This document shows positions 9,405 to 43,652 of a stretch of DNA of 43,652 bases, piece after piece. Where the stretch lies: the UHGV virus genome UHGV-0201380; one strand, given 5' to 3'. The stretch comes from a virus. The notes beneath the pieces were generated by a model. The model saw nothing but the letters and a program-made list of their open reading frames with translations, did not search any database and was not told the origin of the DNA. The first letter of the stretch is position 1. Each line of letters opens with the position of its first letter. A program made the translations under genes and the position numbers.

Positions 9405-9418
9405 ACGCCAGTTGCATT

Positions 9419-9448
9419 CACATAGCGCCCCGCAGGACGCTATAGGCT
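9419..9448 (-). promoter_or_regulatory. Conserved early-region hairpin element, copy 2
   Basis: 30-bp element, 27 of 30 identical to the copy at 10135..10164. Contains a 6-bp inverted repeat ATAGCG/CGCTAT whose stem positions covary with copy 1 (ATAGCA/TGCTAT). Lies 15-45 nt upstream of an early gene start. Confidence 0.4.
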
Positions 9449-9521
9449 TGCTACTAGAGATATTCGCCCGCCACTACAAATAACAGCACCACCGCCGTTA
9501 TGATAACCATGAATTCTACGC

Positions 9522-10097: not shown

Positions 10098-10134
10098 AAT
10101 GCACCTCTTTGATTGGTTGTTTAGGTAATTACTT

Positions 10135-10164
10135 CACATAGCACCCCGTAGGATGCTATAGGCT
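10135..10164 (-). promoter_or_regulatory. Conserved early-region hairpin element, copy 1
   Basis: Same 30-bp element as 9419..9448, here with stem ATAGCA/TGCTAT. Sits about 40 nt upstream of the 191-aa early gene. Confidence 0.4.
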
Positions 10165-10168
10165 GTAA

Positions 10169-10366
10169 TTATCGACCAAATTGGGAGTTAACAGTAGGCC
10201 ATCCAGATGGCTGCCTGCTACTGCCCTTTTGTTTTTGCTTTCCCCTCACCCTGTGCTCACTGCTCAACCCTTGTTTGCTAGGCTTCACAGTAAGCGGCAC
10301 GTCGTCGGTGGGATTCAGTGATAATTGCATATTCCGCCGTAATGCTAAACGCTTTGATTTGCGCAT
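10169..10366 (-). CDS. Hypothetical small highly basic protein
   Basis: 65-aa track ORF rich in Arg/Lys (MRKSKRLALRR ... KQKQKG). ATG is preceded by GAGAGGTAAG. It is the first ORF downstream of the candidate sigma70-like promoters. Confidence 0.35.
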   Translation of the reverse strand: MRKSKRLALRRNMQLSLNPTDDVPLTVKPSKQGLSSEHRVRGKQKQKGSSRQPSGWPTVNSQFGR

Positions 10367-10966: not shown

Positions 10967-11383
10967 TCACTGGGAGCAAAAAGAGTAAGCAGACCCCCAA
11001 AGGTCTGCGTGCAGTAAACTATTGTAGTCCCCATAAGTCACGTCGAACTCTCGCCAGTTAGTATCGTACTCAGGACTAGCCAATAACTCATCCTTTGTGA
11101 AGCATCTCCCTTCCTGAATCTGTGCTAAGTGTATGGCCCGGTGAGTGTCAGCGCTAACCAGTATCAGGTTATTGAAGTCACAGTTAAGGCGGTTACTGTC
11201 ACAGTGATGTACGTGATAGCCAGAACCGTAGCTAGTGATTCCCAGAGCATCCATAACCACGGCCCTATGCAGCGCCACAGTCTTATAGTCTCTCTTACCT
11301 CGCTTATTCACATACTCAGGCCCAGCACCATTAATCACTGGATAACCTTCCTTATCAACCACAATCTTAAATGTTCTAGCCAC
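10967..11383 (-). CDS. HNH homing endonuclease
   Basis: 138 aa with HVHHCDSNRLNCDFNNLILVSADTHRAIH (HNH core). Free-standing, between the terminus repeat region and the early promoters. A GC hairpin plus T-run overlaps its last codons (about 10975..11008). Confidence 0.8.
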   Translation of the reverse strand: MARTFKIVVDKEGYPVINGAGPEYVNKRGKRDYKTVALHRAVVMDALGITSYGSGYHVHHCDSNRLNCDFNNLILVSADTHRAIHLAQIQEGRCFTKDELLASPEYDTNWREFDVTYGDYNSLLHADLWGSAYSFCSQ

Positions 11384-12205
11384 AACAATATCTCCTTACA
11401 TAGTGATTAGTAGCGTAACCATAGCGACGATATCCCGGAGGGATAGGAGCGGAGGTTACAAGATTCTAGGTAATGCTTCCCTCCCTACGGTCAGTCATAC
11501 AGGGCATTACTAGGGGATACTAGTGACTACTAGTGAGTAGTAGTAAGTAGTGTGTATATAGTGCCCTAAAACCCTCCTACTCCTGTAACATCATTTCATG
11601 ACAGCTTTCGAATGAAAGTAAGAGCAAGGGGATAGCAAAGAGATAGCGCCGGGATAGTGTTGGGTGAGGATGTGCGCCCTAGTGGGGAGCGCGCAGCGTA
11701 GCATATAATCGGCACAATGTAAAGCACTAGGGATAGCCAGTGGATAGCCTAGTGCATACTAGGGATAGCACCGTGACGCACTACAGCGCACTAGGCAGGC
11801 CCACTATGGCCCCACAATGCAGGCACTAGGCGGGCCCACTATGGACGCGCAAAATAAGCAAGGCAGAGCGCACCCCTACGGCCCACAGGGAGCGCACAGG
11901 GATAGCCCCTAGTGCCCCGTAGAGCGCACAGGAGCCACTCAGTGCCACGCACAGGCCAAGCCGTGGGGCAGCACTAGCGATAGCCCCAGCGCAGCGCAGG
12001 GAGCCACTGAGGCCCTCTGAGGCTTCCGCTATAGCCACGGTCTTAGCTGCCGTGGCGCTCCACACCTCAGAGAGCGCCCTAGGGCCGTCTAGACGTCTAG
12101 GCACCCACCCCACCCCTCCTTTTATGCGCTAGGCACCCCCTATGGGGGCAATTGGCGTCGTTGAGGGTGAGGGAGGCTCAAGGGCGAGTATAATAATTTT
12201 TGGTT
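11384..12205. repeat. Non-coding repeat-rich region, probable physical genome terminus or terminal-repeat neighbourhood
   Basis: About 820 bp with no ORF of 60 aa or more on the coding strand. Dense short direct repeats (GGGATAGC about 8 times, CACTAG/CTAGTG about 9 times), a 21-bp direct repeat CACTAGGC(A/G)GGCCCACTATGG twice about 39 bp apart, and tagt-type microrepeats at 11521-11560. Lies between the last late gene and the early region. Confidence 0.5.
11575..11591 (-). promoter_or_regulatory. Candidate phage-RNAP promoter-like motif, copy A
   Basis: Exact 17-mer TCCTACTCCTGTAACAT (minus strand ATGTTACAGGAGTAGGA), one of three identical copies in the window, here within the terminus region. 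Confidence 0.35.
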
Positions 12206-19656: not shown

Positions 19657-22600
19657 TTAATCGTCTCCGAAGTTATTGATGATAGCTCGCGTAGGTGCGA
19701 ATTCCTGGATTAACGGCACCTGCTTAGTGAAGGTCTTGATATCCATATTACCGGTAGCCAGGTCCTGCACAGCCCCAAGTAGTCCTGTGACGTAACCCAT
19801 AGATGCCAATGAGTGACGGGGAGAATCCCCCAGGAAGATATCCTGTAGTAAGGATACACCGCCAATGGCACTCATACCCATCACGGACTCACCGATGAGT
19901 TTCTGGGTGTCTACGTCCTTCCCATCCATACCGTGCTTAGCCATAGTAGCCAGTAGCATCAGCGGGAATTGATACGCCATAATATGGGCTACGCCAATCC
20001 ACCCAGCGTCGCTCAGCTCCCTACGCAGAATCTTGTTAGTGGCGGCCAGTGCGAAGCTCTGGTACCCTACAATGACTTTGCCGATAGGGTTGAACTGTGC
20101 AAAGTGTGAGGTCTCTCCAGTACGAACCTGCTGTACCAGGTAGTCCATCATACGCGTCCCTACAACCTCAACTTGCATTTGCAGGTCCGGCTGGAACATG
20201 GCGCCCGGGTTGGCTTTGTTGGCAGCGATGGCACGGTCAGCAACGTCGCGGGTAAGCCCGAAACGCTCCAGACGCTTAAACGCCGCAGCATCACCCTTGA
20301 ACATCTGGGTAAGCTCATCCGCCACAATGCCGGAGTTCAGGTTAACCTGCAGCCGGTGCACCATGCTCATACCGTTGACGTGACGCGCAGCCTGCCCAAC
20401 GTTCTGGGTTACATTGAACCAAGAGGCCTGACGGGTCAGGTCCAGGTTATCGTCGGCGTACGTATTCAACCAGCGGAAGCGCATCTCCTTCTGGATATTA
20501 CCTCGCAGTACAGTGTCTAGACGGGTAGCCATATCCGGAGTCTTGATAGCTACGGCACCTTCCTTGAACCAAGGCTGGTCACGCATACTACGCAGCACTC
20601 TAGCCATACCGAACTCCTTCATAGCCAGGGCAGTGTCAGTCAGCTGATACAGGCCGGAGTTCTTAAGCATGGTGGCGTTAGCCATGTTCCCGGCTGCACG
20701 CAGCAAATCCGGAAGCTGTCCGGCGTCAGCAGGCGCCCCACCCAGGATAAAGTCGATGGTGTCATTGACTGTCTTCTCCCACTTAGCGGAATCCGCCAGT
20801 GCGTGCTTAGACTCATCAATCATCTTAGCTAGCTGGCCCAGGTCCTGTACGCCTGCATAGGCCATGCCTACACGCCCAGACATACGGTTAGTGTACCCGT
20901 GCATAACCTTGGCTACATCAGTATCCATCAGGTCCTGCATGCGCATGCTCTTACCGTTCACCAGATACTCTTTGTCCATGTTGAACCGAGTACGCTGACG
21001 CAGGTTCCGCGCAGGGGATGTGCTACCGGATTCGCGTACGTTACCAGCCAGGAAACTCTGGATTGCAGATTCATCTACACCAGCGCTACGCATAGCCATA
21101 ACGACCTCGTCGTTACCCATGCCGTTAATCAGCTGCTTCCACATCGGGCCGGACTGCCCTGCACGGCCGTTGTAGATACCGTCAACCATCTCCTTTGCAA
21201 CACGCTGCACTACCTCTGACTCCATGCTCGGGTACACGTCCCGCAGGGCGGACCTGAACAGGGCGCGGTAGTCGTCCAGAGTGTTACCCTGCGCAATACC
21301 TTGGCGCATCTTGTCGTAGCTGTACTGACGCGGGAAGTAGTAATCGGATTTAACCAACGCACCATCATCCACTAGACCAGCATTGAGCATATGCTCGTGC
21401 CACTTGCCTGCCCAGCCAGAGCGGCGATAGGCGTCAACCAGTGGGGCAATCTCTGCATCCGGTACGGGAACAGCTCGGCCGTTTACATCAGCACTGTAGG
21501 CAGCATCCAGGTACTTGCTCAGGCGGTCTTCCAGTGCAGCCCGCTCAGCGCGGAACTTGCTCCGATGGAAGAAGCGCTCAGAGAAACCTACACCCTTATC
21601 CTTCAACGCGCCCAGGATAGCGTCTTCCACTACGCTAGCGCTGGCGTCCATCTCCAAAGTGAGGTTGCGCTTGAAGTCCACTACAGACGGGCGACGGCCG
21701 CCTACTGCGGACGCATCCGACACTAGCAGTTTAGCCAAGTCTTCATTGCCTTGAGCGATGTTATCGTACAGGGCAAACATAGTAGAGAGCTTCTTCTTAG
21801 CGCCATCCAGCATAGCTTGGGCACCCTTAGCCTCGTTTAGGGTAGTGCTGCCCGCCAGGTCCTGGAAGGCTTCACTACGGAAGCCCTGGGCTTGGTCTGC
21901 ATAATCCTTAGCTGTCCACTTAACGGCGTCCTCGTACGCATCCAAGACATCTTCCAAGGCAGAACCTTTGGCCTTGATGCCCAGGGCATTCATGATGTAC
22001 TCGCCCAGTTGGCGGAGCATGCTCTTACCGGTTGGGGATTTCGTCCGCGCCAGATGCTCAACCCACTCAGGGCTGTCACCTAAGCCTGCCAGCATCTCGT
22101 GCACATTACTAGCGTAATACCGCATACGCGGCGTCAAGGTGGAGTCCGCTGCAATAACAGCGCGCACTTCATCCAGGCGCTTAGCAATCTCTGGGTTACT
22201 GTCAACGGCGCGCGCAGTGGCGGCATGAATCAGTTCGTGCACGGCTACCCTGCTTGTGTCTGCATCCATAGCACGCAGTGCGTCCCCTGCTGTAGTCCAT
22301 GTGCTGCCATTAGCTCGCTTAGGTGCGCGTAGAGACACCTCTCCACGCTTAGCTAAATCTTGCTGTGCGTAAGTGTAGCGGCTGCGGTTTGCGGAGCCTG
22401 CTACCAGTTTAAAATCAATGTCATTTACAGCATCGCCCAGCGTGTCCAGAATAGCCTTCTGGCCTGCTGTTAAGTGTTCGGACTTCTTCAAGAACTGAAC
22501 TACGTGCTGTGCTTTCATGTTCACGGAGGCGGTATTGTTTCTAGATACTTGGATGCTTTCATCCAGTGTCTTAGTAAGGATTTCCTCTCCCTCTCCTACT

Positions 22601-23355
22601 CCTGTAACATTAGCGTCCCTCGCTGTACGAGTTGTAGGCGCTTCTGGGTCGAACATAGGCTCACGCCCAGTACGAGCCTTAGCAGCAGCTTTAGCAGCCC
22701 TAGACATATCCCAGAGCTGGTCCAACCCAGCTACGCCCGCTACCAGTGCAGTTACCGCAGCAGACTGGCCCAGTTGGTCCTGCGCATAGAATGCGGAGCC
22801 TACGTCAGCAGCGCGGATAGCAGTCCGTGCAGCTAAGCCTGCGCGGCCAGCAATACCAGCGGCAGACATCGGGGCCAGGATGAACGGAGAATCACCCACC
22901 AACATACCCGCGAACCCGGCTACCGTGTTGTCAGCCATTAAGCGGTCACGGTTGCGTTGCTCAAGCATCTGCTGCATGCGGTAGTTGTAATCCTCGACCG
23001 ATACAGAGTCGTGCAGGTACTCAATCTCTTCCTGATTCGGAGCATACAGCTTAGCCCTGGTATCGCTGCTCAGAGTCTGCTTGGCGTTAAAGTTCTGGTC
23101 CCGGTCAAATGCCGGGGCAGAGGCCTTACGGATAGCTGCGGCGATGATGCTGTTACCCATACCAGACGCAAAGCTCTCCCCGGCTGTAGTAGCTGGGGTC
23201 TTGGCCTGCGCCAGTAAGGAGGCACGCTCCAGTGCGTTTAAGCCGTTGTCTCCGGCATCGTTCCAATCTACGCGCTCAGGCGCAGGTTTAAGTGTTGCGC
23301 CCTTAGCAGAATCCTTTTCCTGTGGATTCGGTTCTTGGTTCAGAAACTGAGCCAT
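19657..23355 (-). CDS. Internal virion protein (T7 gp16-like ejection/core protein)
   Basis: 1232 aa; largest ORF, last of three consecutive internal virion protein genes between tail tubular B and the tail fibre. Confidence 0.75.
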   Translation of the reverse strand: MAQFLNQEPNPQEKDSAKGATLKPAPERVDWNDAGDNGLNALERASLLAQAKTPATTAGESFASGMGNSIIAAAIRKASAPAFDRDQNFNAKQTLSSDTRAKLYAPNQEEIEYLHDSVSVEDYNYRMQQMLEQRNRDRLMADNTVAGFAGMLVGDSPFILAPMSAAGIAGRAGLAARTAIRAADVGSAFYAQDQLGQSAAVTALVAGVAGLDQLWDMSRAAKAAAKARTGREPMFDPEAPTTRTARDANVTGVGEGEEILTKTLDESIQVSRNNTASVNMKAQHVVQFLKKSEHLTAGQKAILDTLGDAVNDIDFKLVAGSANRSRYTYAQQDLAKRGEVSLRAPKRANGSTWTTAGDALRAMDADTSRVAVHELIHAATARAVDSNPEIAKRLDEVRAVIAADSTLTPRMRYYASNVHEMLAGLGDSPEWVEHLARTKSPTGKSMLRQLGEYIMNALGIKAKGSALEDVLDAYEDAVKWTAKDYADQAQGFRSEAFQDLAGSTTLNEAKGAQAMLDGAKKKLSTMFALYDNIAQGNEDLAKLLVSDASAVGGRRPSVVDFKRNLTLEMDASASVVEDAILGALKDKGVGFSERFFHRSKFRAERAALEDRLSKYLDAAYSADVNGRAVPVPDAEIAPLVDAYRRSGWAGKWHEHMLNAGLVDDGALVKSDYYFPRQYSYDKMRQGIAQGNTLDDYRALFRSALRDVYPSMESEVVQRVAKEMVDGIYNGRAGQSGPMWKQLINGMGNDEVVMAMRSAGVDESAIQSFLAGNVRESGSTSPARNLRQRTRFNMDKEYLVNGKSMRMQDLMDTDVAKVMHGYTNRMSGRVGMAYAGVQDLGQLAKMIDESKHALADSAKWEKTVNDTIDFILGGAPADAGQLPDLLRAAGNMANATMLKNSGLYQLTDTALAMKEFGMARVLRSMRDQPWFKEGAVAIKTPDMATRLDTVLRGNIQKEMRFRWLNTYADDNLDLTRQASWFNVTQNVGQAARHVNGMSMVHRLQVNLNSGIVADELTQMFKGDAAAFKRLERFGLTRDVADRAIAANKANPGAMFQPDLQMQVEVVGTRMMDYLVQQVRTGETSHFAQFNPIGKVIVGYQSFALAATNKILRRELSDAGWIGVAHIMAYQFPLMLLATMAKHGMDGKDVDTQKLIGESVMGMSAIGGVSLLQDIFLGDSPRHSLASMGYVTGLLGAVQDLATGNMDIKTFTKQVPLIQEFAPTRAIINNFGDD
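22594..22610 (-). promoter_or_regulatory. Candidate phage-RNAP promoter-like motif, copy B (intragenic)
   Basis: Exact 17-mer TCCTACTCCTGTAACAT inside the gp16-like gene, about 760 nt from its start. Confidence 0.3.
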
Positions 23356-26107: not shown

Positions 26108-26695
26108 TTACCAGGTATGAACTGAGCTGTTACCCTTACTCCCCCATAAGTCATAGGAGGATGCCGTGTTCTGTGTAGCCGACGCACCGCTACCAGGGGA
26201 TGAGCCGCCAGAGTCAGAAGATGACGCAGCGTTACCGGCGTACTGCCCAACGGCAGATGCCCCAACACTTAGCAACGAGTTAAACATGTTATCGTACGGG
26301 TCCTCCATGTCCATGTTAGCCAGACCACTATCCACAGCCTTGTCCGTCATTAGCCGGAAGCCCTCTTCCTGGGTTGCCTGCTGGTCCCGTACGCTAGCCT
26401 CTTGTCGCCCTGCTACTGTGTTCACGGTGGCTACGGCGTCTTTAACAGAGGCCCCCATAGTGCCAGAGGCTGCTGCCTGCAGTACTACTTGGCTCTGCGC
26501 CTGCAGTTTCTGCTGCTGGATGTTAAACAGGGATACCTCAGTCCTGTCCCTGGACTGTGCACGCTGCAGCGCTATATCGTTTAACTGTTTGGCTGTCTGT
26601 TGAATCACAGCCTTGTTCCTGGCCTTGGACACTTCAATCTGAGCACTCTGCCCCAGAACGGCCTTAGCGGCCATGGCCGCAACCATCCACCACAT
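26108..26695 (-). CDS. Internal virion protein (T7 gp14-like)
   Basis: 195 aa, first ORF after tail tubular B. Called by synteny. Confidence 0.55.
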   Translation of the reverse strand: MWWMVAAMAAKAVLGQSAQIEVSKARNKAVIQQTAKQLNDIALQRAQSRDRTEVSLFNIQQQKLQAQSQVVLQAAASGTMGASVKDAVATVNTVAGRQEASVRDQQATQEEGFRLMTDKAVDSGLANMDMEDPYDNMFNSLLSVGASAVGQYAGNAASSSDSGGSSPGSGASATQNTASSYDLWGSKGNSSVHTW

Positions 26696-26696
26696 A

Positions 26697-29057
26697 TTAA
26701 ATTCTCCGTCTGCGTTGGTTGTAGCGCAGGATATACGAGATATCCAGCACGTTCAGTTCCATAGAACCCTCAGTAAATAACGTCACCTCGGTTGTGTCTG
26801 CGTTAGTACGGCACGGCACGGTAATCGTAGCCAAGTCCATACGCAGGGCCTGCCCAAGCGTTAGCTCCTTTGAGTTCATCAAGATACCGGTTAGTTCCCC
26901 ACCCCAGTTGACGTCCCGTGGGGTGTCTAGTACCTGTACATCGAAGTGCCCAGAGTTACGTACTGCTACGTCCAGGCGCAGCAGGCGCACGTGCCCACTT
27001 CCCACTAGCTTGTCATTCTGGTCCCGTAGAATAGGCGTAGTTAGAGTGAACGTACTGCGGTAGCGTCTCCCAATTACGTAGGTGCCATCAGGTACACCAC
27101 GCACAACCCGCAGGGTGTTCTCCCCGGCAATCTCCTTGATGCCAACCTCAGTAGGCCCCATAGGGTTGCTGGGCAAGTACGTTAGGATAAGCTCTTCCTT
27201 GTAGTTGTCAGCCCACCCGACGGGGCGCAGTACCGCCGGAACAGTAAACACCCCATCCTGCACTTGAACTTGCTTCTGCAAATCCGAGTAGGCTTCGCGG
27301 TACTCCGAACCCAGCTGATAACCTTCACGCGGGTCCATAGACACAATCAAAAGCTTGTTGCTGGGACTGGGCCCTTGCATATACAAGAACACCTCATCCT
27401 CCAGCGCCTGCACGCTCAGGATTGGATATGGGAACGTCCATTTATGCCACGACGCTTGCATCTTAGTACCATCACTCCCACCCCACATAAACTCATAGAC
27501 CAGCAGGTTATTTCGCTCTCCGGACATTCGTGAGAAGGCCATATTGGTGACACTGGAGTTTTGCATCTGCAATACCCTGCCGGGAATGTACCGCGGCAGG
27601 TGCACCGTGGCGTCCTGCGTAGTGTACTGCGCCGCAGTATATGGTGATGGGATTAGCTCCAGTATACCCGCGTAGCTGTTGTTGCGCTTATTCGGGTAGA
27701 TTACCGTCTGCCCCGCCATTACCGGAGTCACACGGCTATCACACTCGTAGGTGCTGGTGATGCTAATACTTGCGTTAGTGGGGGTGAGTACCGCTGAACC
27801 CGGCACAACCGCCTGCATGCTGTTAGCAAACAGGACCAAGTCCCGGTTGAACTGCACAGCGGTACGATACACAGAATCCTGTGCAGACGCAGAGCTAATG
27901 CTGATACGGTCCGTATCCAGCAGAGACGTCACAGTGGAGCGGTAGAAGCGCTGGTACAGACCTGAGGCAGACATATCCACGGAGCTACCACTAAGCAGAA
28001 CCAAGCGGCCCTGGAAAGCTGCAATGCCGGTGATGTATCCATTCTCCACGAATCCGGGGTCGCTGTTATTGTCGTCGTTACCAGCTAAACGCCCCTCCCA
28101 ATCCCGCGCAATAATGTTGTCATCTGCAGCAAGCTCTCGGGGCATGTTCGTAATCTTGGTGATGCTGCCGTACGCTCCCACCTCAGACCAGGTGCGGGTG
28201 CTGTAGCTGAACTGGTACCACGCTGTCTCAGACGAGGCTGTACCTACACGACACATCGCCCCGTCAGCTTGCGCTGGGAGCTGTGCAGGTAGGTCCTGCT
28301 CCTGGTCTACACGAGACTGGTTGGATACCCCAGCATAAGTATCGCCAGCGTCGGAGGATACCACACAGTTGCTCAACCCATAGAAGAACAAGTATGCGCC
28401 GCGTACGCTAACGTTCCCAGCTGGCAATCCATTCGCTACAAGAGAGTCTCGCAGCTGCTGAGCAACGTAGGCACCTGATACCTCCTCAGCGTTACCACTG
28501 GTACTGCCAGCAGCTGGGGCGGTGTAGTCCCCGGAGTAATCTACCCCGGCAGATGTAACAGTGACGTTCCAGCGTTTCTGGAATGCTGCAGATTTAACGT
28601 AGAAGAACCCAGTGGTGCCTGGGTCAATACGCCCCGTATTGTCCACGGTTGTGTTCGGGGCCATCTCCGTATTCAGGATATAAGTCAGTCCAGCAATACT
28701 CGCGGTCTGCAAAGAGGTCTGACCCACGGCGGTAATAAAGTACGGGTCGTTTCCGGAGTTAAGGATGGTCTTTCCATTCTTAGCCAGTAACCACCAGTTA
28801 CCGTTGCTGGTGTTAATCAGCAGGTGCCTACCGTCAGTTCCACGCTCTACGTATTCAGTGAACAGGGAATCAAGCCCTGGATTATCAATCGTGCTTTCCC
28901 AGACAATCTCACCCGGGGGTCTGCGGCGGATACCGGAAACCGGGTCGCTGAGCATGTTCAGCTGCGCCCCCAGTTGTCCTGGTTGGCGCTCTCTCGGAAC
29001 CTGCTGGGAAACGCCCTGCAGCAAGCTCTGAATAGTACCTTCTAATGATTGCGCCAT
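26697..29057 (-). CDS. Tail tubular protein B (T7 gp12-like)
   Basis: 786 aa, directly downstream of tail tubular A; size and position typical. Confidence 0.85.
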   Translation of the reverse strand: MAQSLEGTIQSLLQGVSQQVPRERQPGQLGAQLNMLSDPVSGIRRRPPGEIVWESTIDNPGLDSLFTEYVERGTDGRHLLINTSNGNWWLLAKNGKTILNSGNDPYFITAVGQTSLQTASIAGLTYILNTEMAPNTTVDNTGRIDPGTTGFFYVKSAAFQKRWNVTVTSAGVDYSGDYTAPAAGSTSGNAEEVSGAYVAQQLRDSLVANGLPAGNVSVRGAYLFFYGLSNCVVSSDAGDTYAGVSNQSRVDQEQDLPAQLPAQADGAMCRVGTASSETAWYQFSYSTRTWSEVGAYGSITKITNMPRELAADDNIIARDWEGRLAGNDDNNSDPGFVENGYITGIAAFQGRLVLLSGSSVDMSASGLYQRFYRSTVTSLLDTDRISISSASAQDSVYRTAVQFNRDLVLFANSMQAVVPGSAVLTPTNASISITSTYECDSRVTPVMAGQTVIYPNKRNNSYAGILELIPSPYTAAQYTTQDATVHLPRYIPGRVLQMQNSSVTNMAFSRMSGERNNLLVYEFMWGGSDGTKMQASWHKWTFPYPILSVQALEDEVFLYMQGPSPSNKLLIVSMDPREGYQLGSEYREAYSDLQKQVQVQDGVFTVPAVLRPVGWADNYKEELILTYLPSNPMGPTEVGIKEIAGENTLRVVRGVPDGTYVIGRRYRSTFTLTTPILRDQNDKLVGSGHVRLLRLDVAVRNSGHFDVQVLDTPRDVNWGGELTGILMNSKELTLGQALRMDLATITVPCRTNADTTEVTLFTEGSMELNVLDISYILRYNQRRRRI

Positions 29058-29066
29058 AACCTCTCC

Positions 29067-29627
29067 TTAAACCATAAAACGAGCGCGGCGGATTCTACGA
29101 GCAAAGCGGGTCTTGCTGGTGCTGAATCTCTGGTTGCGCAGATGCTCACGCAGCACCATGCTCTTGTAGCGCTCAGCTTCCTGTGCGTAATTAGCGTAGT
29201 TACTGTCGCCGCCCAGGTCGTTTAGATACACCTGTGCAGTGGTGTAGTTAGCCACCCACATAGCCGCATGCTCCGGCAGGTCCTCAAAGTCCAAGTCCAG
29301 GACTATTTTGAGCTTAACGGAGCTGTCGAAGTACTGGTTCTGCTCCATAAGGTCGTACAGGTTCCCATCACGGACCCCGTATTTGGAGTCAGAGCCAGCA
29401 TCGTACACGGCCAGTTGGTTCCACGGCACTTTAATAAAGCCGTCAGCAGTAGGGGCAACTTCACGCTCGACCACGTTAAACCAGAACCCTGTGCTGAGCA
29501 GCCCGCGCCGATTGCGCGCAAGCGCAGAGCGAGCTAACCCAGCGCTTGGGTTGCTGGTGTTGATGTCCATAACGCGGGACTCCCCCAGGGCTTCCAGCGT
29601 CAGGTTCACAGCGTCTAATTCTCTCAT
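29067..29627 (-). CDS. Tail tubular protein A (T7 gp11-like)
   Basis: Track ORF extends to 29702 through the terminator. The ATG at about 29627 (MRELDAVNLTLEALGE) follows an AGAGGAA Shine-Dalgarno, giving about 186 aa, comparable to T7 gp11 (196 aa). Confidence 0.85.
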   Translation of the reverse strand: MRELDAVNLTLEALGESRVMDINTSNPSAGLARSALARNRRGLLSTGFWFNVVEREVAPTADGFIKVPWNQLAVYDAGSDSKYGVRDGNLYDLMEQNQYFDSSVKLKIVLDLDFEDLPEHAAMWVANYTTAQVYLNDLGGDSNYANYAQEAERYKSMVLREHLRNQRFSTSKTRFARRIRRARFMV

Positions 29628-29672
29628 ATTTGTTCCTCTATTAAAGACCCCTTGGACCCTTAAGACAGGGAC

Positions 29673-29709
29673 AAAAAAAAAGCCCCTGGCACCCGAAGGC
29701 ACCAGGGGC
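29673..29709 (-). terminator. Intrinsic (rho-independent) terminator, T7 Tphi-like, minus-strand specific
   Basis: Minus-strand RNA forms GCCCCUGGUGCC-UUCG-GGUGCCAGGGGC: a 12-bp stem with two G-U wobbles and a UUCG tetraloop, followed by U9. On the plus strand the wobbles are C/A mismatches. Sits 6 nt after the stop of the 115-aa ORF. Confidence 0.8.
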
Positions 29710-29714
29710 GCGTA

Positions 29715-30062
29715 TTACTGTTTGTTAACAGGCTCGAACACGTTACACTCAACAGTTCTAGCTGCTGCGTTAAACGTAAAACCCCGAAGACCCATAACAT
29801 CCACCAGATATCGGCACAAATCAAACACGTGCTTAGGTTCCCGGGTGTGGGTGCCGCTTACTACGTACTGCTCAACCCTAACAGGTACAGCCTGCTTTAA
29901 CATGGCCTCTGAGATGATGCGCAGAGCATTGGCTGTACTGTCCCCAGTGCAGCGTTTGTGCCACACCTCTGTGCCGTACTCTACACCACCTTGGGTTATG
30001 GCCTCCATGCGGGTCATACCGGTTATAATGTTACGGATATCTTTCATAGGTTTCCTCATCAA
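29715..30062 (-). CDS. Hypothetical protein encoded between capsid gene and terminator
   Basis: 115-aa ORF (MMRKPMKDIRNIITG...), no recognised motif. Co-transcribed with the capsid gene upstream of the terminator. Confidence 0.55.
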   Translation of the reverse strand: MMRKPMKDIRNIITGMTRMEAITQGGVEYGTEVWHKRCTGDSTANALRIISEAMLKQAVPVRVEQYVVSGTHTREPKHVFDLCRYLVDVMGLRGFTFNAAARTVECNVFEPVNKQ

Positions 30063-30096
30063 ACGGAACTAGGCAGGTTCAATTGCCGTTAACTGT

Positions 30097-30279
30097 TTAC
30101 TCTTCCGTAGTATCAGCGGCTGCGTCAGCCGCCTTACGGGTTTTCTTGGTAGCCTTGCGGCCAGATTCAACCGAAGCCACCTGGATGTTCTTCGCTACAT
30201 CGGTGGCGGCCTTAACCGCCTCCCGCTGAGCTGCATTGGCCTGGAGAGTCTCCAGACCGAACGTAGCGATTACTGCCAT
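30097..30279 (-). CDS. Hypothetical small Ala/Lys-rich protein downstream of capsid gene
   Basis: 60-aa ORF starting 12 nt after the capsid stop. Confidence 0.45.
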   Translation of the reverse strand: MAVIATFGLETLQANAAQREAVKAATDVAKNIQVASVESGRKATKKTRKAADAAADTTEE

Positions 30280-30290
30280 TGAACCTCCAA

Positions 30291-31310
30291 TTAGGACTTG
30301 GTGGTGAGGGTGAACTTGGTCACTGCAGCGGTGTCTGGACGACGCAGGCCGATGTTGTACATCGCGTAGCAGTCCAGTACGTTGCTGAACTCGCGCGTAT
30401 CGTCCCAGATACGGGAGGTGAACGGCTTGGCCTCAACAGTCACCAGGGTCTTGGACTTGCTGAAAGTCACCATACGGCACAGCGCGTCGTCAGGGGTGAC
30501 GGTGTAAGCAGAGCCCAGCGGGTGCGTACCAGCAGCGGTCGGGAACTCAGTGCACTCTACTACAGGCACTCCGTTCATCTTCACTACACGGCGGTCTTTG
30601 TAACCGTCGTTGTTGGATGCACCAAAGTCCAGGTTCAGGAGCTTCGGATGCTCCAGCAGACGCGAATAGGTATCGACATCCACCAGGGTAATCATGTCCG
30701 CCAGCGGAGTCTTACGCTTGATGAGCTCATCAATACCAGCCTTGTGGGCCAGGTTGATGTTCATGGCGTTCGCTTCCATCTCAGCCTGGGTCAGCTGCGT
30801 GGCGGTAGTGGTGCCCGGAACCAGGATAGAGGCACCCACTTCGATACCGTCGTTGAATGCCGGTTTAAGGTGCTCCGGAGCAACCCAGGAGCGGCCCTTG
30901 ATGAGCTGAATCAGGTGCGCCTGGTCGAAGGTCTCCGCGAACTCCGAGCCGTTGTTCTGGCCCATCTCAGTCAGGAAGTCCGGACCGGTCCAGTCATCCT
31001 GGTAGTCAATCGGGTTACGGATATACAGCACCGTATCCACCACGATAATCATCTTATCGTTACGGACCGGGGTGCTATCCAGCGCCTCGCCAGAGCGACG
31101 ACCCTTCACCGAAGAGGTGTTCAGGCGGTCAATACGGTAGGTATTGGAACCGCTGATAGAGCGCTGGCTGGATAGGCCCAGGAACAGAGCCTGGTACTGG
31201 AAGCGGGTGTCTACTTCATTCTGATACACTTCCAGGTGAATGTCTACATCAGATGCCGCGCCGCCCCAATGGGCTCGGGTCAGGGCGCTTTTATAGATAG
31301 TATCTGCCAT
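30291..31310 (-). CDS. Major capsid protein (T7 gp10-like)
   Basis: 339 aa. C-terminal CYAMYNIGLRRPDTAAV resembles T7 gp10 AKYAMGHGGLRPEAAGAV. Position after the scaffolding gene. Confidence 0.9.
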   Translation of the reverse strand: MADTIYKSALTRAHWGGAASDVDIHLEVYQNEVDTRFQYQALFLGLSSQRSISGSNTYRIDRLNTSSVKGRRSGEALDSTPVRNDKMIIVVDTVLYIRNPIDYQDDWTGPDFLTEMGQNNGSEFAETFDQAHLIQLIKGRSWVAPEHLKPAFNDGIEVGASILVPGTTTATQLTQAEMEANAMNINLAHKAGIDELIKRKTPLADMITLVDVDTYSRLLEHPKLLNLDFGASNNDGYKDRRVVKMNGVPVVECTEFPTAAGTHPLGSAYTVTPDDALCRMVTFSKSKTLVTVEAKPFTSRIWDDTREFSNVLDCYAMYNIGLRRPDTAAVTKFTLTTKS

Positions 31311-31335
31311 ATCTTACTTTTCCTTTTAAATGAGA

Positions 31336-32178
31336 TTAAAGACCTACGCGCTTACCGGCTTCACGGCGTGCGAGCAAATCGTTATAACGTTGACTGAACT
31401 GTGGGGATGCCAAGCTACGGTTGCCCGCTTCCTGACGGAGTTTGGTGTACTCTGCGCGGAATTCCGCAGCAGATAGTGCATTGTTGCTGGCTACACCGCG
31501 TACCATTGGGTTCTGTGTCTTGATAAGACCCATATCCCGGCAGAAGCTTGCTACCAACTCAGCGGCCTGCTTGAGCTCACCCGAGTTAGCGAGTACACGA
31601 GCTGCGTTACGCAGAGGTTCAGGGGCCTTGGAATTAAACAGCTGCGCTGCTACCTCCCAGTTCTCCTTACCACCCACGATATCGTAAGCTTCCTGTACTG
31701 CTTTGGTGGCTTGGCCAACCTGGTCTTCCAGGTACGCCTTGGCCAGCAGCTCTGCATAAGCAGCGTGCTCGCCGAAACGTTCCTTAATGAAGGCCGTATC
31801 GATTAGGTTAGGGTCCTGGTACTCCAGGGCCTTACCAAGTGCCCGCACCATATCAGAGTCAGTTAACCCAGAGACTTTCTGCAACATAGCTACACCGGCG
31901 TCAATCGTCGGGTTGCCAGTCTTAGCCAGCTCCTGGGGCTGCTCTTTAGCGCTATCGCCACCCTTATCCAGGGCCGCTTTTAGGGCTTCGATATCCAGAG
32001 GAATCTTAGCAGGGTCAGGGGAATCTTTGCCCTGTTGCTGCTGGGTAGGTGTCTGTGCATCCTGCACGCCTTGATTGTTCGGGGCGCTAAGGGGAGCACC
32101 TAGGCCCGGAATCTTAGGACCACCTTGGTTCTCTACCTGTGTAGTTTCTACGTTTTGACCGTTTTCTACGTTATCCAT
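31336..32178 (-). CDS. Capsid assembly scaffolding protein (T7 gp9-like)
   Basis: 280 aa, Gln/Ala/Glu-rich, between portal and capsid genes. Confidence 0.75.
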   Translation of the reverse strand: MDNVENGQNVETTQVENQGGPKIPGLGAPLSAPNNQGVQDAQTPTQQQQGKDSPDPAKIPLDIEALKAALDKGGDSAKEQPQELAKTGNPTIDAGVAMLQKVSGLTDSDMVRALGKALEYQDPNLIDTAFIKERFGEHAAYAELLAKAYLEDQVGQATKAVQEAYDIVGGKENWEVAAQLFNSKAPEPLRNAARVLANSGELKQAAELVASFCRDMGLIKTQNPMVRGVASNNALSAAEFRAEYTKLRQEAGNRSLASPQFSQRYNDLLARREAGKRVGL

Positions 32179-32192
32179 CTATGCCTCTGTTG

Positions 32193-33788
32193 TTAACTTG
32201 GTAATAAGCCCAGCTGCTTACCTGCTACTGTCGGGTCCGCTGCTGTCAAGCCCTGGAGTTGGTCCTGTGCTGCACCTGCGGATACATCGGCAGACGCATC
32301 TTGAACCTGTTGCTTCTGCTGCAGCTGCTCTTCGGTGTACATGAACGGCTCGCTGACGATACCATAGGCGTCGAAGTACCAGTCTACACACGCATCCTTG
32401 TTGAAGCGCGGAGTAATCTGCTCAAGCACCGGGATAGCCAGCTGCATGGACTGTGCCGCCTCTAACAGCTTGTCCGCTGCTGCGGCCTTAGCCAGCGCAG
32501 AGGTACCTACTGTAACGTTGATGCTCACCACGCCTTCGCTGAGGTACAACTTAAAGCGAGGGTACACCAGTGCAGTGTACAGGTACGCCAGCTTACGCAG
32601 CCAGGTGTCGCTCAGGATACTGAACCCACCACCCATAGCGGCTTCCGCCTCTTTGGCGTTCTGGCGAATCTCATAAGCCGTGACACGCTCACCCTGCCGG
32701 GAGTTGCCGGTGTACATAAACGCACGAGACAGTTTCTGTTCGAGCATCTGGATGTTGCTGGCAATCCACTGAATCTTCTGGGCAGAGCCGCCCTCGTAAG
32801 CAGTGACAGGAGACTTAGTGTTTCCGTTGGAACCACCGCCGCCCACCTGCACGGCCTCCCCGGTCTCCGCCGTAGAGAACTCGTCCACATCCAGGCCAGA
32901 ACTAGAATCTACTAGTGGAATCAGCCGAGAGGCTTCGACCTCGTAGTTAGTCAGTGCTTCCGACAGTACCGATAATCGGGCAAAGTCCCCAGCGTAGTCC
33001 TCTACCAAGCCGCGCCCGTAGTGCTCGCCACTAACAAGGTTCCACACCAGCACGTTGTAGGGGAGCTCCAGCTCCGGATAGGTGCTGCTGTCCCCGATAC
33101 GGTGTCCATCGGCTTCTTGATACACCTCGTAGCTTACTACCTCTACGCCTTCCTCTGTCCGCTTAACTTTGCGACAAGCGGCAGTGTAGATATCAACGTC
33201 GCCGTATGGGTCTTTGTCACGGTAGAAGGTGTTCTGGAAATCCTCTGGCAGGTCCTGGACGCTTGTGCGCTCTCTGATAATGAGTCGCAGGACGTTCCCG
33301 CTGCCATCCCTTCGAACGGTAAAGTTACGAACTGAGTAGACGATGGATTTACCTGTCCGCTCATCAATATACTCCAACGCGTTACCTGTAACCAGCAGCA
33401 GCTTCACAGCTTGCAACTTCGCAGCATAACCGTCTTTCTCAAATACTTTCTGTGACGCTGTGTTCTCAACCTCAGCCAGCTTAGATTCTGCCGTAGCTGC
33501 ACTGCCCAGCGAACTAATGAACTCGTCCAGGTCCGAACTCTTGGAGAACCGGAAGAAGCTAGTGCCCTGAGGGAACAGTGCCCCTACAATCTTAGTGGCT
33601 GCAGTGTTGACCAGCTGCGCGCCGGTGCTCTGGTAGTCACGCTCTAGCGGTCTGCGTCTACCGTCCAGGGAATCGTCCCGGGTAAAGATAGTGCTGAGCG
33701 TCCACTGCGCGAACTTCTCGGAGGCATCCAATACACCTGCGTCCTGGTCCTTCTTAAAGAGTTCTGCTAATGTTGCTTTTTGTTCCAA
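32193..33788 (-). CDS. Portal (head-tail connector) protein (T7 gp8-like)
   Basis: 531 aa. Motif GERVTAYEIRQNAKEAEAAMGGGFSILS resembles T7 gp8 GERVTAEEIRYVASELEDTLGGVYSILS. Confidence 0.9.
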   Translation of the reverse strand: MEQKATLAELFKKDQDAGVLDASEKFAQWTLSTIFTRDDSLDGRRRPLERDYQSTGAQLVNTAATKIVGALFPQGTSFFRFSKSSDLDEFISSLGSAATAESKLAEVENTASQKVFEKDGYAAKLQAVKLLLVTGNALEYIDERTGKSIVYSVRNFTVRRDGSGNVLRLIIRERTSVQDLPEDFQNTFYRDKDPYGDVDIYTAACRKVKRTEEGVEVVSYEVYQEADGHRIGDSSTYPELELPYNVLVWNLVSGEHYGRGLVEDYAGDFARLSVLSEALTNYEVEASRLIPLVDSSSGLDVDEFSTAETGEAVQVGGGGSNGNTKSPVTAYEGGSAQKIQWIASNIQMLEQKLSRAFMYTGNSRQGERVTAYEIRQNAKEAEAAMGGGFSILSDTWLRKLAYLYTALVYPRFKLYLSEGVVSINVTVGTSALAKAAAADKLLEAAQSMQLAIPVLEQITPRFNKDACVDWYFDAYGIVSEPFMYTEEQLQQKQQVQDASADVSAGAAQDQLQGLTAADPTVAGKQLGLLPS

Positions 33789-34501: not shown

Positions 34502-34518
34502 TCCTACTCCTGTAACAT
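34502..34518 (-). promoter_or_regulatory. Candidate phage-RNAP promoter-like motif, copy C
   Basis: Exact 17-mer TCCTACTCCTGTAACAT (minus TTAATGTTACAGGAGTAGGA), immediately after the RNAP stop and before the structural module. Loosely reminiscent of T7-group promoters in length and the TAAT-start/purine-rich-end layout. Confidence 0.4.
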
Positions 34519-34526
34519 TAAATTTT

Positions 34527-36995
34527 TTAGCAGAAGAAGAACGGGGATTCTAGCACTTGCCGGATGTCCAAAGTGCCCACTTCCGGCATGTCCAGGTCCG
34601 TCAAGTCTGCCCCGGCTGCTGCTGCTGCGCGAGTAATGTCGCCAAGCAGGTCATTCTCTTCATACAGGCGCACAAACTGCTCACGGATGTGCCTATGCAT
34701 AGCGTCAACGTCAGCTGCGTGAGTAGCCAGCGAGTCGTGAATAGGCACAATATCCAGACCCTCCGCAGCGCAGAGCACCATCATCAAGTGCGTACTGTCC
34801 AGGCTATGCACAAAGTTCGGGGCAATCCCGGAGGCTGCCTTGCGCTTGTTGCAAGTTTTGAAGTCCCGGTTGTGTACCAGTACCGCTGATAGGTTCATGC
34901 AGTCAATACGTACGCGCACTTCTTCACGCTGCGTGTAGCGGTTCATTACGAGCCCACCCAGCGGCGTATACCACTGCAGATGCTGGCTTGCCGGTACACG
35001 CCTAGCGAGGTTCTGCAAGTACCCCATAACTGCGGCTGCGGCTGGGTTTGCCTCCTCGATAGCAGTGCGCATACGCGGAGCCAGGTAGCATGACAAGTTC
35101 CACAGACTGTTAGTCTCAGTACCCTCGTACCCCTCAGCGCAAGCGCCTTCGAAGATGTAGTCGCTGCAGCTGCGCACAGTGGCGCTGTAGAAGTAGGTCA
35201 TACTAGGGCGCTTGGTCATGCTGCGGGTGATTTCGTTCTCTCTCCAGTACGTGCTCTGGATAACGAAATCCTCCTTGTCCAGGTCCAGTATCACCTTCTC
35301 GTCCGTACGGCGCTTCACGTCCATGTACAGGTCCGCTTTCTTATCATTACCCTCCCAGTACAGGTTCGTCAAGCGTCCGCCCACAGGGTCTCTCAGGAGC
35401 GCTGAGAGATGCTGTCCACCTGAGTTTGTAGCGTCCATAGCAACTGGGATTCGGCTAATATGCTCTTCTGGGCATCCAGAACGAACCGCATTAACCAAGT
35501 CGATAGCGGCGGCCAGCAGGCACCAGGGGCTATCCGCAGAGGAAAAAGCAGGGGCATCAAGAGGAGAATCCGCGAGCCTCTCAATCTCTGCATAGTTCGC
35601 ATCAACCCAAGCTGCACGGTCTTCGAATAGGGTTTTGTCATAACCAAAGCAAGTGGCGACGTGCACTTTAAGCCAGAAAAGTCCGCGCTCTCCCAGAGGC
35701 TTGCCACGTCCGAATTCAAGAAGGGCTTTCTGCAAATCAGAACCTTGGGGATGCAGCGAGGACTTGAAGTACAGGCGGTAGCGCCAGTCCACACAAGTCG
35801 GGAAGTACAGGGCTTTCTCATCTTTGAATTCCTCCGCCATTTCCAGCGTGGTCAACAGGCTGCGTAGTTGTGACACACGCTTACGGTCTGCGCTGTACCA
35901 TAGGGACATGCGCGTCTTCCACTCACCGAAGCGGTCCAGTTCTTCTTCGGTGTAGTTCTCTTTTGGTACTCCATCCAAGTACCACTCCGGTTTAGGCTCT
36001 GGTACTGAGCGGGGCATGCCCACCCCAATACCCAGGGCCCGTGCTTCTTGCACCAGTTCCAGTATGCGCTTATTAATACGGTATGGGGTTTCCTGCGCCT
36101 TATTAAGCGCCTTTTTGATGCCGTCCGCGGACTTGAATGCTTCTGCTACTTCACGGAGTCGCGCGCGGTCGATGTGCGAGTTGTGATAGGTCCCGCGATT
36201 GTCGATGGGGGTAAGGTACCCGCCATCCCACATAGTGGTGTGCTGTACCGGTGGCACCAGCATAGGCGGCTTCATGGTTACGGTATCAGCGGACTCTACC
36301 AGTTTCTGGAAGGCCTCCATAACATCGTCAGCCGGGTAGAGCATGCTCAGGTTCCCACTACAGTTCTTCCATTGGAACAGGCCAGTCTCAAACACCGCGG
36401 CACATAGCAGCCGACCTACTGAGATATTCTGGGAGTTGGTCCATGGCTCGTGCCCATAGTGCACGTTCTCAGCACTGGCCCGCAGCGTACGCAGGATGTG
36501 CGTGGGAGACTTGGTCTTACGCTCCGTAAGGTACTCGTACACACGGTCCATGTACGCCGGAGCCACGTTGCGTAACTGCAGGGCCAGCAGTTCCGATTGT
36601 ACGTTCCGGCCCAGCGCGGACATTACCGCCTGTGCAGTCTGGCGGCGGCTAGCGGACTCGCCAGGAGCTACGCTAAATGCCTCAAACATTGTGCATAGGC
36701 TCAGGGTGGTCAGGACATCCAAGGGGACTAAGCGCAGGAACCGGCGGTACTTACCGCCAATGCCCGGGGCTTTTACATTTCGCATCTCATCGATAGCGGC
36801 GGCGGCCACCTCATATGCCGAGGTGAGCATACGCTGCGTCATCGGCAGGTTCATAATCCCACCGTTCTGCAATGCGTCCGTAATCAGCTTACGTGCCCGC
36901 TCGATTCCGCGAATCTTATAGGTCTCTTCAAGCTCCAGCTGGCGTTTCACCAGTGCTTCCTCTGGTACTACAACCGTATTCAGGGCGCTAATCAT
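34527..36995 (-). CDS. Single-subunit DNA-directed RNA polymerase (T7 RNAP family), located next to the structural module
   Basis: 822 aa. Motif A-like PVAMDATNSGGQH, motif B-like RSMTKRPSMTYFYSAT, motif C-like PIHDSLATHAAD. AAGGAGA Shine-Dalgarno. Placement directly upstream of portal is the phiKMV-like hallmark. Confidence 0.95.
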   Translation of the reverse strand: MISALNTVVVPEEALVKRQLELEETYKIRGIERARKLITDALQNGGIMNLPMTQRMLTSAYEVAAAAIDEMRNVKAPGIGGKYRRFLRLVPLDVLTTLSLCTMFEAFSVAPGESASRRQTAQAVMSALGRNVQSELLALQLRNVAPAYMDRVYEYLTERKTKSPTHILRTLRASAENVHYGHEPWTNSQNISVGRLLCAAVFETGLFQWKNCSGNLSMLYPADDVMEAFQKLVESADTVTMKPPMLVPPVQHTTMWDGGYLTPIDNRGTYHNSHIDRARLREVAEAFKSADGIKKALNKAQETPYRINKRILELVQEARALGIGVGMPRSVPEPKPEWYLDGVPKENYTEEELDRFGEWKTRMSLWYSADRKRVSQLRSLLTTLEMAEEFKDEKALYFPTCVDWRYRLYFKSSLHPQGSDLQKALLEFGRGKPLGERGLFWLKVHVATCFGYDKTLFEDRAAWVDANYAEIERLADSPLDAPAFSSADSPWCLLAAAIDLVNAVRSGCPEEHISRIPVAMDATNSGGQHLSALLRDPVGGRLTNLYWEGNDKKADLYMDVKRRTDEKVILDLDKEDFVIQSTYWRENEITRSMTKRPSMTYFYSATVRSCSDYIFEGACAEGYEGTETNSLWNLSCYLAPRMRTAIEEANPAAAAVMGYLQNLARRVPASQHLQWYTPLGGLVMNRYTQREEVRVRIDCMNLSAVLVHNRDFKTCNKRKAASGIAPNFVHSLDSTHLMMVLCAAEGLDIVPIHDSLATHAADVDAMHRHIREQFVRLYEENDLLGDITRAAAAAGADLTDLDMPEVGTLDIRQVLESPFFFC

Positions 36996-43345: not shown

Positions 43346-43506
43346 TCGGTATCCTCTTGTGTTGTTCCTACTCGTATCACATTAATTCTCTGTGAATCAC
43401 AGAATCAAGCTAGAGTCAACAAATAATTTTATTTAATTATTTAGTTGACCCCAGTGTATTTCCATGCTACCCTAACCCCCTACACCACCCAAGGGTCCAC
43501 CTATCA

Positions 43507-43652
43507 CTATTCCACGATAAGCTTGTACTCCCCCGGGAAGAAGGTAACACCATCCCCCGGTCTACTTACTACTAGTCCAGGATAACTTAGTTCTATCTCC
43601 CCAGTAACCGGGTCGAAGAACATGACCGTGTGCCTCGTACCCGGGGCGAAGT
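43507..43652 (-). CDS. 3' portion of a small ORF truncated at the window edge (continues at 1..43 if the sequence is circular)
   Basis: The minus-strand frame is open from the window end to a TAG at about 43507. The same frame continues through the revcomp of positions 1..72 to an ATG at about 43..41 (GGAG upstream), giving a 65-aa ORF directly downstream of the DNA polymerase stop. Confidence 0.3.
   Translation of the reverse strand, partial: FAPGTRHTVMFFDPVTGEIELSYPGLVVSRPGDGVTFFPGEYKLIVE

Follow-up and report, generated by a model that had tools for sequence, protein, structure and literature searches.

A conserved hairpin with a U9 tract as the probable late terminator of KP34-like Klebsiella phages, in the position of T7 Tphi

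By analyzing a 43,652-nt stretch of phage DNA (hereafter the window), we found that positions 29673-29709 of its minus strand are, with a probability of roughly 90%, the late intrinsic terminator conserved among KP34-like (Drulisvirus) phages and the counterpart of T7 Tphi in both position and function. This reading is based on the anatomy, stability, uniqueness, conservation and synteny of the site and on the promoter map around it, all of which were observed directly; the sequence, its fold, a terminator scan, the annotation of KP34 and Table 3 of Eriksson et al. 2015 were brought together for its identification. The feature is real, it had been correctly located and correctly interpreted in the earlier note made from the sequence alone, and as an analogue of T7 Tphi it is a textbook case. 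It is also already known, since the type phage KP34 carries it as an annotated feature and it has been published for the genus as a whole.

The window is a whole Klebsiella phage genome of the KP34 type (Drulisvirus, Slopekvirinae, Autographiviridae), with 97% identity to phage RCIP0106 and ~92-93% identity to KP34 in positions 27000-33000. All genes throughout the window are on the minus strand, no genes were predicted on the plus strand anywhere in the genome, and the window is reverse-complemented and circularly permuted relative to KP34. Since an exact match to the S2-type promoter TGATGTTACAGGAGTA (KP34 nt 475-490) was found at 11593-11578 (minus strand), the conventional left end can be placed near 12,000. 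The terminator locus is syntenic with KP34 genes 42-45. Upstream of the terminator on the minus strand are the genes of the portal (32193-33788), the scaffold (31336-32178) and the major capsid protein (30291-31310, phrog_267, E 3e-94, KP34 gene 42), followed by a 60-aa homologue of KP34 gp43 (30097-30279, phrog_7403, E 7e-40, KP34 gene 43). The next ORF (29715-30062), which we call accessory, lies between the gp43 homologue and the stem and is the last gene before the terminator; it encodes 115 aa from a TTG codon, or 110 aa if it starts at the ATG chosen in the annotations of relatives, and its TAA stop (29715-29717) ends 5 nt before the stem. The first gene downstream, on the same strand, is that of tail tubular protein A (29067-29627, phrog_446, E 1e-61, KP34 gene 44), whose ATG (29627-29625) is reached 45 nt after the terminator, and the tail tubular protein B gene (26697-29057) follows it. 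The site stands after the capsid block and before tubular A, a position that fits an intrinsic terminator of the coding strand, and the description 'after the capsid block' is right as to position, with the addition that the capsid gene is separated from the terminator by two small ORFs of 60 aa and of 110-115 aa.

When the minus strand is read from 29709 to 29673, the sequence is 5'-GCCCCUGGUGCC UUCG GGUGCCAGGGGC UUUUUUUUU-3'. The sequence and the fold together define a 5' arm (29698-29709), which was unchanged in 18 distinct relatives, a UUCG tetraloop with a C-G closing pair (29694-29697) and a 3' arm (29682-29693), and the U9 tract (29673-29681) begins with the base directly 3' of the stem. 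The 12 pairs of the stem comprise 9 G-C pairs, 1 U-A pair and 2 adjacent wobbles (U29701.G29690 and G29700.U29691) at the third and fourth positions counting from the loop. The earlier note, which had given a 12-bp stem, a UUCG loop and nine U at 29673-29709, was exact in coordinates as well as in anatomy, and the fold calculation that it had suggested as a check gave -26.5 kcal/mol (RNAfold, minus strand; z -3.61, none of 200 shuffles reaching this stability), the hairpin being both the MFE and the centroid structure. Thus, a stable GC-rich stem-loop, an adjacent 3' U-tract and a co-oriented intergenic position after a stop codon, by which intrinsic terminators are recognized, were all found at this site.

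Regarding the opposite strand, it had been claimed that the two wobbles prevent the complementary strand from forming the same hairpin. This is right for the helix itself, in which both wobbles become A.C mismatches, but the complementary strand still folds at -19.9 kcal/mol (z -2.58) into a hairpin in which stretches of 8 bp and 2 bp are separated by a 2x2 A.C internal loop. This plus-strand hairpin has A9 upstream and no U-run downstream, where GCGUAUUACUG follows. On the sense strand the sequence 5' of the stem is CAGUAAUACGC, and since it holds no A-tract, the combination of an A-tract 5' and a U-tract 3' of the stem that marks a bidirectional terminator is absent at 29673-29709. The strand specificity of the terminator comes mainly from its one-sided U-run. 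The T7 class II signal ATCTGTT occurred 3 times in the window against 3.8 occurrences expected by chance, with none near 29673-29709, and a class II identity of the site was rejected on account of this chance-level count and distance. A scan of the whole window at Rfam gathering thresholds returned 0 families, which is uninformative here because terminators are not Rfam families.

In all three scans that took in the window, 29673-29709 was the top terminator-like site, and its A9/T9 run is the sole A/T homopolymer of at least 7 in 43,652 bp. An accidental inverted repeat lying beside an accidental T-run would explain the site without any function, and the weak terminator-like patterns of the window, which were not enriched (12 found vs 13.7 expected), would be in line with such an accident. 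However, only 3 of 300 dinucleotide-shuffled whole genomes yielded any comparable site on either strand (defined as a stem of 10 bp or longer with 7 or more T among the next 8 nt), the fold had a z of -3.6, and the intergenic site is kept in hundreds of genomes, whatever ORFs flank it. We consider that conservation and the shuffle test together refute this reading, which is scarcely credible. A weaker terminator-like site was seen in the early region (10989-11008, minus strand), where an 8-bp stem, GCAGACCU-UUGG-GGGUCUGC, is followed by UUACUCUUUU (-13.6 kcal/mol, z -2.3).

The terminator can be traced through the genus by annotation and by comparison. The GenBank record of KP34 (GQ413938) carries a regulatory feature at 26623-26660 described as 'rho-independent terminator; discovered using mfold'. 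Table 3 of Eriksson et al. 2015 (Viruses 7:1804; PMC4411677) gives GCCCCTGGTGCCTTCGGGTGCCAGGGGC followed by T9-10 as common to KP34, SU503, SU552A and F19, together with a wobble variant in NTUH-K2044-K1-1, and the terminator was located by these authors between KP34 genes 43 and 44. The window terminator is an exact match to GCCCCTGGTGCCTTCGGGTGCCAGGGGC of that table and to the KP34 locus in our set (L001), with the T-run after it. The hairpin was present in 55 of the 55 IMG/VR loci that reach the region, and a 116-nt query around the site matched 246 GenBank phage records (226 of them with at least 80% coverage). In relatives, the length of the T-run ranged from T5 (in locus L016) to ~T19 with a mode of T9, and the loop varied only to UUCU (NTUH-K2044-K1-1) and UUCC (2019KP1). 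In a set of 18 distinct sequences, no variation was seen in 9 of the 12 pairs of the stem, and the other 3 varied one-sidedly in the 3' arm (U-A to U.G once, G-C to G.U twice), so that 100% of the cells stay paired in the stem on the sense RNA. No double-compensatory change was found in the helix among these 18 sequences, and the covariation score of the whole structure was equalled by 28 of 500 shuffles; the relatives are close (~92-97% identical), so that the invariance of the stem taken by itself is weak evidence and the formal covariation is weak as well.

The stability of the hairpin in its different forms was compared among the natural variants. The sense hairpins ranged from -21.5 to -30.4 kcal/mol, the antisense hairpins fell to as little as -9.9 kcal/mol, and the hairpin calculated with DNA parameters, -12.2 kcal/mol in the window, dropped to -4.1 kcal/mol in variants. 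Since pairing is kept on the sense strand while the antisense and DNA hairpins weaken, this comparison of sequences points to natural selection on the minus-strand RNA of the terminator rather than on a cruciform or a plus-strand transcript. The same values bear on the idea that the site works at the DNA level, by forming a cruciform, by marking a point of nicking or replication or as an end of the genome. What speaks for such an element is that six IMG/VR contigs (L007, L013, L015, L026, L027 and L040) and several GenBank records start, at their position 1, exactly at the last stem base or in the T-run. On the other hand, the positions of the tandem G.U pairs are mismatched in DNA and on the other strand, as is every natural variant, the DNA-parameter energies are small, and KP34-type genomes have a conventional left end near the 11593 promoter, which makes a DNA-level element very improbable. 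In PP975109.1 (IK_ECO1), which also starts at this site, the first ~77 nt were found repeated at the other end (positions 1 and 43490-43567; L075/L076). This resembles the overlap that an assembler leaves when it circularises an assembly, so such contig ends appear to be assembly artefacts. We rejected the idea of a DNA terminus because of this 77-nt overlap, and the common start looks like a systematic assembly breakpoint at the hairpin or homopolymer, not a physical genome end.

The region of the terminator is an insertion hotspot on both sides, with the accessory ORF upstream and an endonuclease gene downstream, so the terminator marks a boundary beside which accessory ORFs and HNH homing endonucleases have repeatedly been inserted. 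The accessory ORF (29715-30062) was found in the window phage, in RCIP0106, in RothG/I/J and in a minority of the IMG/VR loci, and KP34 is without it; it matched only PHROGs families of unknown function and had no Pfam, NCBIfam or PDB match. The small ORF at the gp43 position of Proteus phage PM16 is annotated as 'virion protein', a likeness to the gp43 homologue by position only. Between the leader and tubular A, a gene of an HNH_3/AP2 homing endonuclease was observed in ~18 of the 55 loci (L008, at 2038-2508, also L010, L014, L016, L018, L019, L023 and others). The inserted endonuclease takes over the tubular-A leader, its ATG and its first codons (MREL), leaving tubular A with an unclear start.

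The position of the terminator relative to promoters was then read from matches to published elements. Lu et al. 2019 (PMC6834552) experimentally defined strong promoters of KP34 RNAP, T(A/G)ATGTTACAGGAGTA, at KP34 nt 475, 22197 and 33721, and also a weak promoter inside the KP34 RNAP gene. Matches to the strong promoter were present in the window at 34520, 22612 and 11593 only, all exact and on the minus strand. The first of them, S1 (34505-34520, TAATGTTACAGGAGTA), is directly behind the gene of a T7-like single-subunit RNAP (822-aa ORF, 34527-36995, minus strand), which corresponds to the KP34 RNAP gene and ends just before S1; the second (22597-22612) is inside the gene of a 1232-aa internal virion protein; and the third is the S2-type promoter described above (11578-11593). 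A copy of the weak promoter, W, with one mismatch (34555-34574, minus strand) is inside the RNAP gene. The terminator lies 4.8 kb downstream of S1, which drives the portal-scaffold-capsid unit that the terminator closes, and the next strong promoter is 7.06 kb beyond the terminator. Neither strong nor weak copies of KP34-RNAP promoters were found between 29672 and 22613. From this lack of a known promoter over ~7 kb, which takes in tubular A/B and the internal-virion genes, we infer that these genes are expressed by read-through; promoters of an unrecognised kind could also be present downstream of the terminator. By analogy with T7 Tphi, the terminator would accordingly be of a leaky type. 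The phrase 'clean late terminator' used in the earlier note is thus apt in the sense of clear-cut and inapt in the sense of complete, since ~7 kb without a promoter implies read-through.

That transcription actually terminates at 29673-29709, with what efficiency and by which polymerase, we infer along the following lines. The phage single-subunit RNAP would start late transcription at 34520, behind the RNAP gene, and the late transcript would pass a 146-aa ORF, the portal, scaffold and capsid genes, the gp43-like ORF and the accessory ORF. The nascent RNA would then fold into the 12-bp UUCG hairpin while the polymerase is transcribing U9, and the weak rU:dA hybrid together with the hairpin would release most transcripts at ~29673-29676. 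Host RNAP would probably read 29673-29709 likewise, as a canonical intrinsic terminator. The fraction that reads through would provide for a lower expression of the promoter-less tubular A/B and internal-virion genes, and the terminated capsid mRNA would carry a stable 3' hairpin. The literature searched yielded neither Term-seq or RNA-seq 3' ends nor in vitro termination results for this terminator or for Drulisvirus. The legend of Figure 2D in Lu et al. 2019 (PMC6834552) states an expectation, and an expectation only, that KP34 RNAP terminates at a class I hairpin in pUC19, and the LUZ19 ONT-cappable-seq paper confirms the same promoter layout for phiKMV-like phages and, in the text covered, describes no post-capsid terminator.

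Such a 3' hairpin could also be regarded as the main purpose of the structure, which would then serve as a 3'-end stabiliser or processing barrier, at which exonucleases stall or near which an endonuclease cuts, and would lengthen the half-life of the capsid mRNA. Capsid mRNA must be abundant, the hairpin is very stable with its cUUCGg loop, and a role in stabilisation is compatible with termination and probably accompanies it. As the main function, however, stabilisation is improbable: it can do without U9 right after the stem, whereas all relatives carry the tract (T5-T19) and the genome has no other such run, and the design matches that of T7 Tphi, a demonstrated terminator. It is more improbable still that the hairpin is an RNase III-type processing site that splits the capsid and tail messages in the manner of the T7 R sites. 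T7-like phages do use RNase III sites, and a second predicted hairpin directly follows the terminator; however, RNase III substrates are stems of ~20 bp upwards that often contain internal loops and lack a U-run signature, whereas the stem here has just 12 bp and is perfectly paired. Better candidates for processing are the long hairpins of the early region at 9405-9460 and 10121-10176. These hairpins (minus strand; -26.3 and -20.7 kcal/mol, z ~-4) are formed by the two copies of a 32-nt motif (9417-9448 and 10133-10164, minus strand), and the copies differ by a G-C vs an A-U with pairing preserved. The motif, which is conserved, was proposed as a phage promoter by Eriksson et al. 2015 (PMC4411677), but Lu et al. 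2019 (PMC6834552) showed that KP34 RNAP does not transcribe it. Judging from the predicted folds, the early-region hairpins may serve in RNase III-type processing or constitute some other RNA element.

The second hairpin after the terminator is a tentative one in the leader of tubular A (29629-29675, minus strand; 19 pairs, imperfect), with a predicted energy of -14.8 kcal/mol. It would consist of the whole 45-nt leader and the last 3 U of the U-tract and, as predicted, would sequester the SD sequence AGAGGA (29639-29634). Its energy was no better than that of shuffles (z -1.15). Among its 19 pairs we counted 5 one-sided changes that keep pairing, 1 swap of U-A to A-U (VLCpiA1c) and 2 broken cells, with further changes in the loop and bulge, and no equivalent was found in other genera, in which the leaders are short or different. 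These data hint weakly, at the level of a folding model, that the tubular-A SD is buried in this hairpin. If so, the terminator could be the first of the two parts of a dosage module, in which the leader hairpin masks the tubular-A SD on read-through RNA, an idea that we hold to be doubtful. If it were true, the output of the tail genes would be cut twice, by partial termination and then by translational masking, and such a double cut would match the ~35:1 stoichiometry of capsid to tail tube. We also considered, and rejected, antitermination in the style of T7, by which abortive G-rich transcripts would pair with the CCCCU of the 5' arm. It was not supported because the initial transcribed sequences of the three promoters (GGAAUG, GGAGAGGG and GGAGGG) give 4 nt or less of complementarity to CCCCU, and the antitermination variant of the dosage idea is less likely.

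Returning to the terminator itself, we compared the boundary between capsid and tubular A in other phages. At this boundary, where a small ORF may or may not follow the capsid gene, a hairpin ending in a U/T-rich tail was found in six other genera (Proteus phage PM16, Vibrio phage HA1, Acinetobacter phage AbpL, Pseudomonas phage MPK7, Ralstonia phage RS-PI-1 and Citrobacter phage SH3) and in T7, and it is annotated as a terminator in PM16 and, as Tphi at 24210, in T7 (NC_001604). Pectobacterium phage Clickz and E. coli phage J8-65 have a hairpin at the same site with a poor U-run. Tphi of SH3 (T7-like, Kayfunavirus), ACCCCTTGGGTGCCTTCGGGTGCTTGAGGGGTTTTTT, and the Drulisvirus terminator have in common an apex of 15 nt, GGTGCCTTCGGGTGC, and a CCCCT/AGGGG base. 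The segment GGUGCC is a palindrome in RNA only, by way of tandem U.G/G.U, and the apex GGUGCC-UUCG-GGUGCC caps many unrelated phage hairpins (the loci compared included SH3, L072, 808-849; T7, L074, 1266-1312; and ~15 IMG/VR loci such as L086, L091 and L102). Since this apex recurs in unrelated hairpins, convergence with Tphi is as plausible as homology, and on 28 nt of sequence the two would look alike.

The terminator is useful as a landmark, because it marks the end of the high-output portal-scaffold-capsid unit in Klebsiella phages of therapeutic relevance. Its compact, strand-specific, wobble-bearing design recurs in T7-like phages and is a candidate for use with KP34 RNAP, an enzyme under development for in vitro transcription.

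Compared with known systems, the terminator is closest to the one published for KP34 and Drulisvirus, with which it shares an identical 28-nt hairpin, a following T9-T10 and the gap between gene 43 and gene 44 (tubular A); the sole difference is the extra 110-115-aa ORF that precedes it in the window phage and a subset of relatives. It resembles canonical bacterial intrinsic terminators in its GC-rich hairpin, in the U-tract directly following and in its place just after a stop codon, but differs from them in that the polymerase expected in late infection is the phage single-subunit RNAP and not the host enzyme. In respect of T7 Tphi, the class I (hairpin plus U-run) terminator for single-subunit phage RNAP, two marks of that type were found, namely a T7-like RNAP with its own late promoter upstream and the position between capsid and tubular A. 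The window terminator and T7 Tphi share this position after the major capsid gene, a GC-rich stem whose 5' arm begins with CCCCU, several G.U pairs and a U-run, and the tail genes downstream have no recognised promoter of their own in the window, as those of T7 have none. In vivo, the efficiency of native T7 Tphi is only ~62% (PMC9157156), abortive transcripts add antitermination to this (Lee et al. 2010, PMC2952870), and the promoter-less T7 genes 11 and 12 are expressed past it (PMC2952870). The two differ in dimensions, T7 Tphi having a stem of ~15 bp, a loop of 6-7 nt, U6 and 17 nt before gene 11, whereas the window terminator has 12 bp, UUCG and U9, and then a 45-nt leader; and the polymerases and promoters of T7 and of the KP34 type are unrelated in sequence specificity.
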